64,000 nucleotides of DNA, taken from positions 21,517 through 85,516 of IMG/VR virus record IMGVR_UViG_3300033074_001483; one strand, given 5' to 3'. Both the position numbers and the translations under genes were made by a program. Numbering within the stretch: position 1 is the stretch's first letter; each line of letters starts with the position of its first letter. This document shows, piece by piece, positions 32,307-55,298 of the stretch. Source of the stretch: a virus. Taxonomy: Duplodnaviria > Caudoviricetes. The notes under the pieces were generated by a model that did not search any database, had not been told where the DNA came from, and was given only the letters and a program-made list of their open reading frames with translations.

Positions 32307-32310
32307 ATAC

Positions 32311-32396
32311 TAGATGCCAGTTTTATACTCACTACGAGTCCCTTTCGGAGTTATGGTGAGCCCGGAGGCTCAATTATTGGTTGCAGTGTGCATCTA
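32311..32396 (-). ncRNA. RCAGCWA-helix family RNA (variant ACTGCAA)
   Basis: TAGATGC/GCATCTA closing helix, ACTGCAA, GAAA hairpin, A-rich linker. Confidence 0.6.
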
Positions 32397-32518
32397 TTTC
32401 TAAACACTTAATGTCCGTTTGGGTGTCACCCCACGCTCTTAGCCCGACAATTAGGCGGCTCGGTAGTCCGAAAGTTATGTTGACAACATAACACACTCTT
32501 TAGCACAAGTGAATTGGA

Positions 32519-42654: not shown

Positions 42655-42921
42655 TTACCCGTTATACGGAGAATCCTCTACCTGCATTTCTCTCACAACT
42701 GCCGCATGGCGATTGAACTTGAAAGATGCCTTATCTTGAACTACCTTTTGAATGTAAGTCAAAAAGCATCCTTCGCAGCAAAAGAAATAGGTTGTAGTAT
42801 CCGTCCGAGTGTTGTAACACTTGTCGCAGTGATGCGACTTGTTCAGTTCTACATGGACGCTAACGGAATCCAGACCGATGCTGGTTCCGTTGCAGTTGTC
42901 ACAATGTACTAATTGCATCAT
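42655..42921 (-). CDS. Small Cys-rich protein
   Basis: CDNC, CDKC, CCEGC motifs. Confidence 0.5.
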   Translation of the reverse strand: MMQLVHCDNCNGTSIGLDSVSVHVELNKSHHCDKCYNTRTDTTTYFFCCEGCFLTYIQKVVQDKASFKFNRHAAVVREMQVEDSPYNG

Positions 42922-48828: not shown

Positions 48829-48933
48829 TGGCGAGATGCCGAACCCTTTCGGGCTTGCCGGGGTTTGAACCCAGCTCACTGTTCATTTTCAATATGAATG
48901 TTTTTCCTTTTGGGATTTGCTGCAAGCATCTCG
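48829..48933 (-). ncRNA. RCAGCWA-helix family RNA with anticodon-like and T arms, CCA end
   Basis: CGAGATGC/GCATCTCG + CCA; GCAGCAA; TTCAT/ATGAA arm; T arm TTCAAAC loop; GAAA hairpin. Confidence 0.75.
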
Positions 48934-49487: not shown

Positions 49488-49622
49488 TAGATACGGTTTT
49501 TTTCTTCCCTTGCGGGACCGACGTTCTACATTAAACTACAGCCCCGATATGTGGCGGGGCCGACTGGGTTTGTCCAGTACTTGCGGTTTGACATAAGAAT
49601 GTTTTCTTGCTGTCCGTATCTA
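49488..49622 (-). ncRNA. Circularly permuted tRNA-like RNA (Asp-like) in an RCAGCWA helix, 135 nt
   Basis: 3' half + GCCA, 6-nt linker, then 5' half; 9-bp closing helix. Confidence 0.8.
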
Positions 49623-49950: not shown

Positions 49951-50085
49951 AAGATGCGTTTTTTTGTAGGCTTTCGCCGACTCCTGCTCTACTCACTGAG
50001 CTACCCAGCCATATGGTGGCTGAGGGTGGATTTGCACACACCGACACGGAGTTCCTCATACATTTTGTTTAGCTGTACGCATCTT
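49951..50085 (-). ncRNA. Circularly permuted tRNA-like RNA (Phe-derived) in an RCAGCWA helix, 135 nt
   Basis: 3' half + ACCA, 3-nt linker TAT, then 5' half; 9-bp closing helix. Confidence 0.82.
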
Positions 50086-52999: not shown

Positions 53000-53079
53000 A
53001 AAACGGCGTACTCAGGGGTTTCACGAGCGTTCCACAAGTTACGTACGATACCTTGTGTCTATCCCTTTCTGCTACAAAA

Positions 53080-53154
53080 TGGTGCTGCACCCGAGAGTCG
53101 CACTCGGAATTCAACCTTCGCAGGGTCGTGTGATATCTATTTCACCAGCGCAGC
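53080..53154 (-). tRNA. tRNA-Arg(GCG)
   Basis: CGACC-CTGCGAA-GGTTG; CCA. Confidence 0.88.
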
Positions 53155-53161
53155 GTGGTTT

Positions 53162-53224
53162 TGGTGTAAGAAATTGGTTTGAAGCTGTTCACATCTTGAC
53201 AAGATGCTATTATTTTCTTACCCA
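53162..53224 (-). ncRNA. Armless mini-tRNA-like RNA of the RCAGCWA family (Asp anticodon loop, ACCA end)
   Basis: GTAAGAAA/TTTCTTAC + ACCA; GCATC-TTGTCAA-GATGT then GA-ACAGC. Confidence 0.6.
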
Positions 53225-53228
53225 AAAT

Positions 53229-53313
53229 TGGTACACTCGGAGAGACTTGAACTCTCATATAGCTTTCGCTCTTGGTTCGTAGCCAAGTGCCAATCCAGTT
53301 TGACGACGAGTGC
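53229..53313 (-). tRNA. tRNA-Arg(ACG) with extra variable hairpin
   Basis: CTTGG-CTACGAA-CCAAG; AGC-GAAA-GCT; CCA. Confidence 0.85.
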
Positions 53314-53374
53314 ATAAATTTGCGAGGTTCTTCCCCTCGCCGTTCCCAATCTTTCGATCAGACTAGGAACAAAT

Positions 53375-53450
53375 TGGCTCCCTCTGCACGAATCGAACAT
53401 GCGCTTCCGAGTTCAAAGCTCGGGTTGCTACCATTACAAACCAAGAGGGA
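53375..53450 (-). tRNA. tRNA-Gln(TTG), copy 2
   Basis: CCGAG-CTTTGAA-CTCGG; CCA. Confidence 0.88.
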
Positions 53451-53455
53451 ATGAG

Positions 53456-53506
53456 TGCCTGCCTACAGGCTTAGCGGTCTTATTGGTCGCCTACGACCAT
53501 AACGGT
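53456..53506 (-). repeat. GTAGGC double-hairpin element, copy 2
   Basis: Matches 44713..44763. Confidence 0.75.
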
Positions 53507-53513
53507 TTTAGAT

Positions 53514-53587
53514 TGGTCGTAGTACGTGGTACTGCCCCACGGTCTAGCGATTATCAGTCGCTTGCTCTACTTTTGAGCTATACTACG
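53514..53587 (-). tRNA. tRNA-Ile(GAT)
   Basis: AGCGA-CTGATAA-TCGCT; T-loop GGCAGTA; CCA. Confidence 0.9.
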
Positions 53588-53980
53588 TTTGCTTTGGAGA
53601 TATAAAGCTCCTTCTCGCATTCTTTTTCTACCTTCGTGAGAAGCATTTTTTACTCCCCACGTTTCTGTTTGAGTATGACAGTTGGGACAAATCATTCTCA
53701 AATTTTCACGGCGGTTATCTTTTTTGTTTCCGTTGATGTGGTCTATTTGAAGACGTAGTGGTTTTTTGTTCCACTCCATTCCTTGTCCACATTCTCCACA
53801 AACCTGTGGAAAGTTTTCATATATCCACCGCCTCATTTGTTTATTCATTGTAGAACCAAGAACAAGACGTTGACTTATGGTATAATCACCACGGCATTTG
53901 TTAGAACAAAATTTTCCACGAGTTTGACTTGGGCGGAATTCAAACTGTTTCTTACAGAATTGGCAGATTGCTTCTTGCAT
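53567..53980 (-). CDS. HNH homing endonuclease
   Basis: CGECG..LQIDHINGNKKDNRRENLRMICPNCHTQT; stop inside tRNA-Ile. Confidence 0.9.
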   Translation of the reverse strand: MQEAICQFCKKQFEFRPSQTRGKFCSNKCRGDYTISQRLVLGSTMNKQMRRWIYENFPQVCGECGQGMEWNKKPLRLQIDHINGNKKDNRRENLRMICPNCHTQTETWGVKNASHEGRKRMREGALYLQSKRSIAQK

Positions 53981-54031
53981 ACCAATACATATTAGACTCC
54001 TACCTCAAACACATAGAAGTCTAACGTAAAG

Positions 54032-54106
54032 TGGCCCTCCATACGAGACTCGCACTCGTTACTTGATCGTGACAGGATCATATGATACCTCATTCAACAA
54101 TGGAGG
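54032..54106 (-). tRNA. tRNA-Asp(GTC), copy 2
   Basis: TGATC-CTGTCAC-GATCA; G73; CCA. Confidence 0.88.
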
Positions 54107-54109
54107 AAA

Positions 54110-54183
54110 TGGCGGCCCAACGGGGTTACGCTCCCCGGACTTCCGATAGACAGTCGGTTAGGTTACTATTACTTTACTGGGCC
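54110..54183 (-). tRNA. tRNA-Asp(GTC), copy 3 (U37)
   Basis: Loop CT-GTC-TA; G73; CCA. Confidence 0.8.
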
Positions 54184-54187
54184 ATAC

Positions 54188-54246
54188 GAGATACATTTTC
54201 TTTGTTTGCTTAACAGGCAAGTAGAATTGGTTGCTGTGAGTATCTC
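54188..54246 (-). ncRNA. RCAGCWA mini-RNA with Asn anticodon stem-loop
   Basis: GAGATAC/GTATCTC; ACAGCAA; TTGC-CTGTTAA-GCAA. Confidence 0.72.
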
Positions 54247-54316
54247 AAAAATCGCCGTGTCCCACAAGATAGTGAGATGATCGCTCACGAATTGCGAGCA
54301 CGGACTAAAAAGGACT

Positions 54317-54370
54317 AGGTGCTGTTTTTTCATTTTACAGATGAATGATTTTTGCTTGCTGCAAGCACCT
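54317..54370 (-). ncRNA. RCAGCWA mini-RNA with Tyr anticodon stem-loop
   Basis: AGGTGCT/AGCACCT; GCAGCAA; TTCAT-CTGTAAA-ATGAA. Confidence 0.72.
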
Positions 54371-54375
54371 AAAAG

Positions 54376-54453
54376 TGGTCTCCCAGAGAGGATTTGAACC
54401 TCCATTATTCATGCTCCCAAAGCATGTGCCATACCAAGTTAGGCGACTGAGAG
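54376..54453 (-). tRNA. tRNA-Pro(TGG), copy 3
   Basis: CATGC-TTTGGGA-GCATG; CCA. Confidence 0.92.
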
Positions 54454-54458
54454 GAAAT

Positions 54459-54537
54459 TGGTGCGCCGGGTGGGTACTGCCCCCACACGAATCGTCTGGT
54501 TAAGAGCCAGCTGCCCGTCTTTGATAGCTTCCGACGC
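54459..54537 (-). tRNA. tRNA-Lys(CTT), copy 2
   Basis: Loop CT-CTT-AA; T-loop GGCAGTA; CCA. Confidence 0.85.
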
Positions 54538-54848: not shown

Positions 54849-54924
54849 TGGTGCTGCCAAAGGGACTTGAACCCTTAACCCTCGGATTAAAAGTCCGATG
54901 CTCTACCAATTGAGCTACGACAGC
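54849..54924 (-). tRNA. tRNA-Lys(TTT)
   Basis: TCGGA-CTTTTAA-TCCGA; canonical; CCA. Confidence 0.95.
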
Positions 54925-55262
54925 ATTGAAAAATGATATTTATGATGACATCTCCTACACAAAACTTTCAAATCGGAGAGTTGTACATCATAGAGATTGT
55001 GATATTGAAGATGATGTGGTTCTATTCGCTTATGACTTCCGCATTCTTCGCAAAGTGGATGGAGAAGAAGTTTGATAGCACGAAGTATTTTCCAGTGTGT
55101 AGAATGAAGATATTGTTGTCTGTAAAAATCTCTATCTCCATAGTAATAACGATACTTATTTCGTTTCTTACCACACGATTGAATTCTTCGTCTGCGAGAT
55201 TTTGGTCTCGTAGGAATGAAGTATTTTCGTGCTCTAACAAGAGTACTTGATGCTGTGAACAT
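54915..55262 (-). CDS. HNH endonuclease
   Basis: CEECG..EPHHLQY..DLKVLCRRCHHKYH; TAG stop inside tRNA-Lys. Confidence 0.85.
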   Translation of the reverse strand: MFTASSTLVRARKYFIPTRPKSRRRRIQSCGKKRNKYRYYYGDRDFYRQQYLHSTHWKILRAIKLLLHPLCEECGSHKRIEPHHLQYHNLYDVQLSDLKVLCRRCHHKYHFSMLS

Positions 55263-55269
55263 AGGCAGA

Positions 55270-55298
55270 ATAATACACCTTCCACATTCTCTTGTCAA
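55270..55298 (-). promoter_or_regulatory. Sigma70-like promoter
   Basis: TTGACA-17-TATTAT. Confidence 0.7.

Follow-up and report, generated by a model that had tools for sequence, protein, structure and literature searches.

Three small RNAs within a phage tRNA array

The stretch of DNA analysed here, hereafter the window, is the 3′ 64 kilobases (kb) of the 85.5-kb IMG/VR virus contig IMGVR_UViG_3300033074_001483 (CheckV completeness 24%), which is a fragment of a huge phage of approximately 350 kb. Between approximately 30.3 and 57.4 kb, about 60 tRNA genes form an array (approximately 27 kb) on its minus strand; many of these genes are non-canonical and were detected only by Rfam or by the relaxed mode of ARAGORN. 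Three elements, which we call c1, c2 and c3, fill tRNA-sized gaps of this array on the tRNA strand, and they are the subject of this report. The original prediction had described them as mini-RNAs that display anticodon stem-loops of the GUN type (Asp, Asn and Tyr), and the letters that it quoted are all present, on the minus strand. Judged by the sequence comparisons given below, c1, c2 and c3 represent real small RNAs of one phage family, whose members combine a conserved helix and motif (the ‘handle’) with a variable tRNA-like part (the ‘cargo’). Their components, all on the minus strand, are as follows.

53221 to 53162, minus strand: c1, a circularly permuted handle RNA of 60 nucleotides (nt), with GCATC-TTGTCAA-GATGT inside
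53221 to 53214, minus strand: c1 5′ part, acceptor-like strand GTAAGAAA, followed by ATAATA
53207 to 53200, minus strand: c1 handle, 3′-type strand GCATCTTG, followed by T
53198 to 53191, minus strand: c1 handle, 5′-type strand CAAGATGT
53188 to 53182, minus strand: c1 motif ACAGCTT, preceded by GA and followed by CAAACCAA
53173 to 53166, minus strand: c1 3′ part, acceptor-like strand TTTCTTAC
53165 to 53162, minus strand: c1 terminal ACCA
54247 to 54187, minus strand: c2, a minimal handle RNA of 61 nt, with TTGC-CTGTTAA-GCAA inside GAGATAC/GTATCTC
54247 to 54240, minus strand: c2 5′ end, TGAGATAC, followed by TC
54237 to 54231, minus strand: c2 motif ACAGCAA, followed by a linker
54220 to 54206, minus strand: c2 cargo, hairpin TTGC-CTGTTAA-GCAA with an Asn-type loop
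54194 to 54187, minus strand: c2 3′ end, GTATCTCG, preceded by an A-rich linker
54372 to 54315, minus strand: c3, a minimal handle RNA of 58 nt, with TTCAT-CTGTAAA-ATGAA inside AGGTGC/GCACCT
54372 to 54365, minus strand: c3 5′ end, TTAGGTGC, followed by TT
54362 to 54356, minus strand: c3 motif GCAGCAA, followed by a linker
54345 to 54329, minus strand: c3 cargo, hairpin TTCAT-CTGTAAA-ATGAA with a Tyr-type loop
54322 to 54315, minus strand: c3 3′ end, GCACCTAG, preceded by AAAACA

The handle is defined by a helix with an AGAU/AUCU core, a U.G pair or mismatch at its very end and a 3′-terminal G. Its terminal helix reads NAGRURC/GYAYCUNG and is followed by RCAGCAA, with an A-rich linker on the 3′ side. 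The closing helices of c2 (TGAGATAC/GTATCTCG) and c3 (TTAGGTGC/GCACCTAG) both have this core, in c3 as the variant AGGU/ACCU, which represents a compensated double change (A5 to G with U to C). The RCAGCAA motif lies 0–3 nt after the 5′ strand, as TC-ACAGCAA in c2 and TT-GCAGCAA in c3. One anticodon-like hairpin is the sole cargo of each RNA; its stem is short and AU-rich, and its loop is identical to that of the phage’s own tRNA-Asn (CUGUUAA) in c2 and tRNA-Tyr (CUGUAAA) in c3. Lacking an acceptor end as well as D and T arms, c2 and c3 cannot decode, and only a role as bait, competitor or tether is possible for them.

A covariance model (R1) built from 20 sequences of foreign phages, with no window sequence included, matches c2 (61.9 bits, E 3.2e-13) and c3 (50.5 bits, E 2.6e-10) on the minus strand only, although E-values from short-calibrated models of this kind are rough. 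The folding z-scores of c1, c2 and c3 range from −2.0 to −2.9, which is modestly better than shuffles. The handle of c2 and c3 recurs in three or four larger RNAs of the array, with a common architecture that consists of the terminal helix NAGRURC/GYAYCUN, 0–2 nt, RCAGCWA, cargo, an A-rich linker and the complementary strand. These larger RNAs are listed here.

48832 to 48933, minus strand: larger paralogous handle RNA, CGAGATGC-TT-GCAGCAA ... GCATCTCG, its 5′ half in common with c3; cargo is a TTCAT-ATTGAAA-ATGAA hairpin plus a T-arm-like hairpin
49488 to 49622, minus strand: 135-nt handle RNA, TAGATACGG-ACAGCAA ... CCGTATCTA
49951 to 50085, minus strand: 135-nt handle RNA, AAGATGCGT-ACAGCTA ... 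ACGCATCTT
32310 to 32397, minus strand: handle RNA whose motif reads ACTGCAA and whose cargo is different (24.5 bits with R1)

A self-blast of the window revealed no paralogs of c1 or c2 and only a weak one of c3 (48882–48931). Searches with blastn of the region and of c2 plus c3 against cultured phages returned only generic tRNA or chance matches, and promoter and terminator scans gave results at chance level.

Given the tRNA-sized slots that these elements occupy and the HNH homing-endonuclease genes nearby (53567–53980 and 54915–55298), one might suspect decaying pseudo-tRNAs, or working armless tRNAs, generated by duplication and homing-endonuclease traffic. The mitochondrial mode of ARAGORN does call armless tRNAs at c2 and c3, and cloverleaves can be forced at a lowered threshold. 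However, these calls fall on the wrong (plus) strand and are an artefact of hairpin symmetry, and the forced cloverleaves have mismatched stems. Neither a match to the Rfam tRNA model (RF00005) at E ≤ 10 nor a standard ARAGORN call was obtained for c1, c2 or c3; moreover, c2 and c3 carry no CCA, and NCCA is present only in c1. This explanation is already contradicted, and we assign it a very small probability, with a further objection coming from the wider family described next.

When IMG/VR was scanned with a pattern that fixes only the handle and leaves the cargo free (AGATRC-NN-RCAGCWA-N20-50-AAAA-N0-6-GYATCT), 79 loci with 84 complementary matches were recovered, mostly on contigs of 50–365 kb. 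These loci are tRNA arrays (637 tRNAs in 776 kb), and 61 of 62 handle RNAs are on the same strand as the tRNA closest to them, with a median separation of 31 nt. When 23 foreign members are aligned with c2 and c3 (25 sequences), the positions AG.U.C...CAGCAA...G.A.CU.G are invariant. The cargo hairpin covaries in this alignment, with compensatory changes on both sides in all three counted pairs, and 87% of the cells are paired compared with 23–48% after the partners are slid. One helix pair (7/65) was constrained by the search filter, whereas pair 2/70 and the hairpin pairs were not. Since the family is conserved and covarying, neutral decay is ruled out. ACAGCAA-handle RNAs appear to be a widespread and undescribed phage RNA family, found at hundreds of loci in IMG/VR; our literature search returned no paper on handle RNAs of this type.

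Approximately 57 well-formed minimal handle RNAs are also found in contigs of metagenome-assembled genomes (MAGs; L174–L291) assigned to Oscillospiraceae, Lachnospiraceae, Erysipelotrichaceae, Bacteroidota, Campylobacterota and Methanobacterium. These contigs are probably binned phage contigs or prophages. The hosts would then be very diverse.

The displayed cargo and its rotated form

The anticodon-like appearance of c2 and c3, as it had been predicted, extends to the family, in which stems covary while loops stay anticodon-like. A stem of at least 4 base pairs (bp) with a 7-nt loop is present in 49 of the 76 unique minimal RNAs anchored on the handle (21 in shuffles). U33 together with R37 occurs in 27 (3.6 in shuffles), and the full pattern YU-NNN-AA in 18 (0.5 in shuffles, with a maximum of 3). 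The loops are enriched over shuffles for anticodon features, and therefore likeness to an anticodon loop has been selected. In this handle-anchored set, the Asn loop CUGUUAA is borne on five different stems (six RNAs including c2) and six different stems bear the Lys loop CUUUUAA; loops of the Tyr, Gly GCC and Ser GCU types occur two times each, and others, such as Thr, Gln, Pro and Leu, are present. A second set, anchored on the protein gene that is introduced below, has Lys six times, Asn four times, Ser GCU three times and UGA twice. Elsewhere in the family, Phe also occurs, His is found once, and Asp is found once on a 3-bp stem.

In near-identical gut phages, the same stem, CAUAA/UUAUG, carries CUGUUAA, CUGCUAA or CUUUUAA (Asn, Ser GCU or Lys). 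This loop switching was seen at L100–L142 and L157 (IMG/VR sample 3300045988 and others), approximately 100–150 nt upstream of a Ro60-like gene, where the handle-RNA stems are CAUAA/UUAUG or UAUGA/UCAUA.

These censuses bear on the original prediction, which held that the elements are free-standing, cheap decoys specific to a GUN-directed enzyme, be it a tRNase of the colicin E5 type or TGT, the queuosine enzyme. Both TGT and colicin E5 recognize U33-G34-U35 within a 7-nt loop, and the exact copying of the tRNA-Asn and tRNA-Tyr loops by c2 and c3, together with the place of Asn among the commonest family loops, can be counted in favour of this proposal. The supporting isoacceptor counts are likewise right: three Asp (one of them non-canonical, 54107–54187), three Asn, two Tyr and two His, with many other isoacceptors also multiplied in the genome. 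However, GUN specificity does not hold across the family. Lys UUU is as common as Asn GUU and the two lead the family loops, followed by Ser GCU and many others that include Gly, Thr, Phe and Gln; His and Asp are singletons; and a single stem switches between Asn, Ser and Lys loops. Moreover, a GUN decoy leaves the conserved handle and its association with a protein unexplained. The proposal has thus been weakened by the family census, and we regard it as improbable.

The nearest relative leads to the same judgement. It had been suggested that homologs be checked for YU-GUN-AA loops, and they do not keep them. In the related phage (L034/G022), the c2 position, 5′ of the same non-canonical tRNA-Asp, retains the handle but has the cargo UUCC[AUCAUUCAA]GGAA with a 9-nt, non-anticodon loop. 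A second minimal RNA of that phage has a Phe-like CUGAAAU loop, and a tRNA-like gene stands at its c3 position. The display is modular, fast-changing and not GUN-specific.

The element c1 had been read as an armless mini-tRNA that mimics tRNA-Asp, and this reading is not supported. Its outer helix, GTAAGAAA/TTTCTTAC (GUAAGAAA/UUUCUUAC in RNA letters), comprises 8 bp followed by ACCA. Its hairpin is GCAUCUUG-U-CAAGAUGU followed by GA-ACAGCUU, which corresponds to the handle 3′ strand, a one-base connector, the 5′ strand, a 2-nt spacer and the motif, and which matches the consensus of the handle, GCATCTnG / TnAGATGC-nn-ACAGCAA. An A-rich linker lies 5′ of the handle 3′ strand, just as it does in the ordinary form. 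Of the earlier claim that all three loops have 7 nt and the form YU-GUN-AA, the letters stand, but a fold program gives the c1 hairpin a stem of 7 bp and a loop of 3 nt. What looks like a UUGUCAA loop in c1 is the closed end of the handle helix, and its G is the invariant terminal G of the family; relatives show UUGAUUUA or UUGAAAA there, and the c1 loop differs from the loops of the phage’s tRNA-Asp genes at positions 32 and 38. The real cargo of c1 is the 8-bp acceptor-stem look-alike with its ACCA.

By searching the fetched arrays for CCA-ended minis, we found a c1 ortholog at L034:2927–2986, between the same two tRNA-Arg genes, that is identical at 57 of 60 positions and has the canonical handle 5′ strand CAAGAUGC. 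Over 73 nt, the two loci agree at 70 positions (96%), compared with 84% and 79% for the tRNAs that flank c1, 81–94% for other tRNAs and 45% for spacer. Relative to the flanking tRNA rates, this conservation is significant (P = 0.006 to 5e-5), and two of the three changes preserve hairpin pairs by wobble. A model made from c1 and this ortholog gave weak matches in other phages, and the rotated build was recognized by reading those matches. Three of them (L063, L068 and L077) share this build, but their acceptor-like helix is a different one, GGGAAAAUA/UAUUUUCCC, followed by NCCA, and their loop, also different, reads UUGAUUUA; like c1, L063 and L068 keep only ACAGC of the motif. The permuted-handle signature yielded 21 matches in the sequence collected for the analysis and four in shuffles. 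Moreover, in three phages a handle hairpin, GUAUCUUG-AAAA-AGAUAU-UA-ACAGCAA, replaces the anticodon arm of a whole tRNA body, and these genes are a full-size version of c1.

L081, 732 to 756: handle hairpin in a tRNA-shaped gene with D and T arms
L082, 508 to 531, minus strand: handle hairpin in a tRNA-shaped gene with D and T arms
L010, 10937 to 10962: handle hairpin in a tRNA-shaped gene with D and T arms

Two further candidate identities for c1 were rejected. A decayed tRNA-Asp with a T-loop remnant is not consistent with the ortholog, in which the supposed remnant UUCAAAC reads CUCAAAC, and the conservation of c1 is that of a gene. Were c1 a DNA palindrome or operator, both the conservation of all 73 nt and the presence of the same build in other phages would be left unexplained. 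Searches for additional close relatives gave little: an exact 22-mer of c1 has no match in IMG/VR and a 21-mer matches L034 only, two metagenome scans (with a tRNA-Arg 20-mer as anchor and with a two-part c1 pattern) returned no close relatives, and a related-locus search with the two proteins that flank the array returned nothing. MAFFT did not bring the five c1-type RNAs into a common register.

A Ro60-like protein that accompanies the handle

Phages that carry handle RNAs tend to encode a protein of approximately 500 amino acids with a DUF2828 domain (PF11443), which also includes a DUF7788/vWA domain with an invariant DxSGSM motif. DUF2828 was found in 31 of 50 carrier records, in 16 of the 17 records with a completeness of 90% or more and in none of 14 control genomes. 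An AlphaFold2 model of the protein encoded at L081:1000–2481 (predicted local distance difference test 87.8, predicted template modelling (TM) score 0.87) was used to search the PDB, and the top 13 matches are all Ro60/TROVE proteins aligned over the whole length (TM 0.49–0.58), including Ro60 of the Thermus phage phiLo. On the strength of this model, the DUF2828 plus vWA protein is predicted to be Ro60-shaped. A profile search of the same protein against PDB sequences returned just a weak vWA match. The canonical Ro60 family was also considered as the partner and was rejected, given that Pfam TROVE (PF05731) is found in none of the 50 carrier records. Our literature search returned no paper on DUF2828 in phages.

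A reverse test that started from the protein gave the same association. At least 503 IMG/VR stretches encode relatives of it, and among the best 80 loci, which were the ones examined, 79 carry RNAs on the gene strand with a 7-bp helix plus ACNGCAA. At the 80 loci, this combination occurs 229 times on the gene strand, compared with 29 times on the opposite strand and 22 times in shuffles; 140 of the 229 RNAs lie within 1 kb directly upstream of the Ro60-like gene. The helix letters vary by lineage at these loci, and ACAGCAA is constant. At L078, handle RNAs stand directly upstream of the Ro60-like gene at a locus without any tRNA, where no RNA-repair domain was found among the neighbours of that gene. 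A general link to the RNA-repair ligase RtcB was considered and rejected, as only one of 51 records contains RtcB. That record is G014 (IMGVR_UViG_3300033121_000719, 109.5–113.5 kb), in which the RtcB gene lies approximately 2 kb from the Ro60-like gene.

The protein association also bears on the possibility that these elements are punctuation for processing or stability, resembling t-elements, such that the terminal helices serve only to direct cleavage of the polycistronic tRNA transcript by RNase P, RNase Z or RNase E, with internal hairpins that lack any role of their own. The location of the elements between tRNA genes, on the tRNA strand and often within a few nt of a tRNA, would fit such a function, as would the acceptor-like helix and ACCA of c1 (a plausible substrate for RNase P or a CCA-end enzyme) and the regular use of CCA|AUUU in the array (38 minus-strand copies). 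However, a mere helix would not need a handle whose AGAU, ACAGCAA and terminal G are invariant across unrelated phages. Members are also found directly upstream of the Ro60-like gene at tRNA-free loci such as L078, and the loops have been selected for likeness to anticodon loops. We therefore consider punctuation unlikely, if somewhat less so than a GUN-specific decoy.

Proposed function and the surrounding array

We favour, with moderate confidence, the view that c1, c2 and c3 belong to one handle family with a variable tRNA-derived part, in which the handle binds the Ro60-like protein and the displayed part baits a protein that recognizes tRNA. The binding, the bait role and the target are all proposed by analogy with Ro60 and Y RNA. 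The handle comprises a helix with an AGAU/AUCU core, with 0–3 nt and then ACAGC(A/U)A following on the 5′ side and an A-rich linker leading into the 3′ strand, and it is most likely the binding site of the DUF2828 plus vWA protein. In c2 and c3, the handle closes the RNA ends, with a bare anticodon stem-loop look-alike (Asn GUU or Tyr GUA) as cargo. In c1, the order is rotated, such that a 1–3-nt loop closes the handle helix and the free ends form an acceptor look-alike ending in ACCA. The Ro60-like gene of this phage would be expected on the missing three quarters of its genome.

The displayed tRNA part might then bait whichever protein recognizes that part. Host tRNA-cleaving defence enzymes, captured or diverted, would be the likeliest targets. 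Other conceivable targets are enzymes that modify (t6A, i6A), charge (class IIb synthetases) or process tRNAs, and other conceivable roles include an interaction of c1 with either RNase P or the CCA-adding enzyme, and a part in RNA turnover like that of Rsr-PNPase. A decoy or bait function of c1, c2 and c3 is plausible. They are not the cheap free-standing decoys that had been proposed, given that all three bear a handle that travels with the Ro60-like protein, and the decoy idea survives only in a broader form, as a hypothesis not restricted to GUN.

One specific version that we entertain tentatively is a modular bait platform, in which the Ro60-shaped protein, equipped with interchangeable RNAs, captures or misdirects tRNA-cleaving defences such as PARIS AriB, PrrC, retron PtuAB and CCA-tail nucleases, and in which the anticodon on display switches by point mutation. 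The pieces available to such a platform would be anticodon loops (of Lys, Asn, Ser and Tyr, among others), an acceptor stem with CCA, and a whole tRNA body. PARIS AriB cuts tRNA-Lys(UUU) as well as the tRNAs for Thr(UGU) and Asn(GUU) next to U36-A-A-U (PMC12409363), retron-Eco7 PtuAB degrades tRNA-Tyr, and PrrC cleaves tRNA-Lys (PMC11555353). The commonest family loops (Lys, Asn and Tyr) coincide with these known targets of anti-phage tRNases (PMC12409363, PMC11555353). Several family hairpins read UAAUC at the PARIS cleavage place, and c2 reads UAAGC.

Several observations weigh against the preferred view of a handle bound by a Ro60-like protein and a displayed bait. No Ro60-like gene is present on the 85.5-kb contig (24% complete) or on that of its relative, both of which are 24–30% complete, and RtcB is found in only one of 51 records, as noted above. 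The ACAGCAA motif is unlike the known Ro60 motifs (GNCGAAN0-1G and CGAA), and Rfam YrlA gave no match. The element c1 departs from the motif (ACAGCUU), has only one close ortholog and is not matched by R1, although this last result is expected from its rotated order. An nhmmer comparison of a rotated c1 with the handle profile is also weak (2.7 bits, with four of 1000 shuffles as good). Cargo identity differs between the two related phages, that of the window and L034, and the loop censuses are raw counts that include related phages, uncorrected for phylogeny. Finally, the bacterial and archaeal MAG-contig matches (57 of 124 passing filters) show 18 different anticodon-like loops, once each. 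These loops are spread over many anticodons, and therefore no single target is implied.

The closest known system is that of Ro60 and Y RNA. Ro60 of phiLo binds the Yrl RNAs (Yrl1 and Yrl2) encoded just upstream of its gene, which have a stem that joins the 5′ and 3′ ends and a single-stranded CGAA motif (PMC12135203), and YrlA RNAs imitate tRNA (PMC4201824). Like these RNAs (YrlA, RF02553, and those of phiLo), handle RNAs are small, are closed by a 5′–3′ stem, have a conserved single-stranded motif beside the 5′ strand and include a variable module that imitates tRNA. Their genes likewise lie just upstream of, and co-oriented with, the gene for a ring-shaped HEAT-repeat plus vWA protein. The differences are nevertheless considerable. 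Unlike Ro60, the handle-family protein belongs to DUF2828/DUF7788 and goes undetected by Pfam TROVE. A survey of jumbo phages names canonical TROVE proteins only, together with a tRNA-like partner (PMC7824862). Unlike YrlA, the handle RNAs have the motif ACAGCAA rather than GNCGAAN0-1G or CGAA; no match to RF02553 was found across 53000–54500, which includes c1–c3, at E ≤ 10. Their cargo can be reduced to one anticodon hairpin or to an acceptor stem plus CCA, without the tRNA-like domain of T and D arms. They also occur as many copies scattered through tRNA arrays and include a rotated form with free CCA ends. Thus, the c1–c3 system resembles Ro60/Y RNA in its working but does not qualify as YrlA.

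A second comparison is with phage rescue tRNAs. Handle RNAs are encoded in phage tRNA regions, as are the T5 tRNA-Lys, tRNA-Thr and tRNA-Asn genes that act against PARIS AriB (PMC12409363). The anticodon identities of rescue tRNAs (including T5 tRNA-Tyr against retron-Eco7 and tRNA-Lys against PrrC, PMC11555353) overlap the commonest handle-RNA loops, namely Lys UUU, Asn GUU, Tyr GUA and Thr. Unlike c2 and c3 with their missing arms and acceptor end, rescue tRNAs are full, decoding molecules that replace cleaved host tRNAs.

The t-elements of plant mitochondria are also tRNA-derived stems located between genes and are possible substrates of tRNA-processing enzymes, comparable in this respect to c1 with its acceptor-like stem and ACCA. 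Unlike handle RNAs, they have no conserved handle sequence, anticodon-like display or dedicated protein partner. Phage T4 encodes two stable, non-decoding RNAs with paired ends, C and D (rnaC and rnaD), within its tRNA cluster, and by description these are similar to handle RNAs. To our knowledge, neither has a known function, a handle motif or a Ro60-like partner.

Ro60/Y-RNA particles are conserved from bacteria to humans, and the purpose of the variable part of Y RNA is largely open. Handle RNAs offer a very large natural series in which the handle stays the same and the tRNA part varies, with a naked anticodon loop or acceptor end as its smallest forms, and this series makes it testable which proteins bind which displayed part. 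If handle RNAs are baits for immunity that targets tRNA, they would represent an RNA-based class of anti-defence that is both new and widespread among large phages. The bait function, if true, would also account for many ‘odd tRNA-like genes’ that are overlooked or miscalled by annotation pipelines in phage tRNA arrays.

The array contains additional features, some of which adjoin the RNAs discussed above.

53567 to 53980, minus strand: HNH homing-endonuclease gene within the tRNA array
54915 to 55298, minus strand: HNH homing-endonuclease gene within the tRNA array
54107 to 54187, minus strand: non-canonical tRNA-Asp(GUC) with loop CUGUCUA (U37) and T-loop AGCGUAA
54248 to 54315, minus strand: 68-nt structured element between c3 and c2 (−21 kcal/mol), with a CCGUG/CACGG stem around hairpins
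42720 to 42774, minus strand: 55-nt mini RNA closed by a handle-like AAGGAUGC/GCAUCUUU

The non-canonical tRNA-Asp was missed by standard ARAGORN and by the default filters of Rfam, scores 35.7 bits with permissive filters and is 81% conserved in L034 (2307–2387). One of the two HNH genes lies directly downstream of the tRNA-Asp pair that adjoins c2. The 68-nt element is without a handle and has no match to the family, and L034 has other sequence at that place. Most tRNA genes of the array have an encoded CCA followed directly by AUUU, such that CCAATTT is present in 38 copies on the minus strand of the array (30000–57500), and this punctuation may be a processing signal. Counted over the whole window and both strands, CCAATTT occurs 55 times compared with 21 expected, and CCA-AUUU punctuation is also present in the unrelated carrier phages L063, L068 and L077. 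The 55-nt mini RNA has no ACAGCAA and carries UUUUGA-CUUACAU-UCAAAA, which has a Val UAC-like loop; according to the mitochondrial mode of ARAGORN, it is an armless tRNA-Val.

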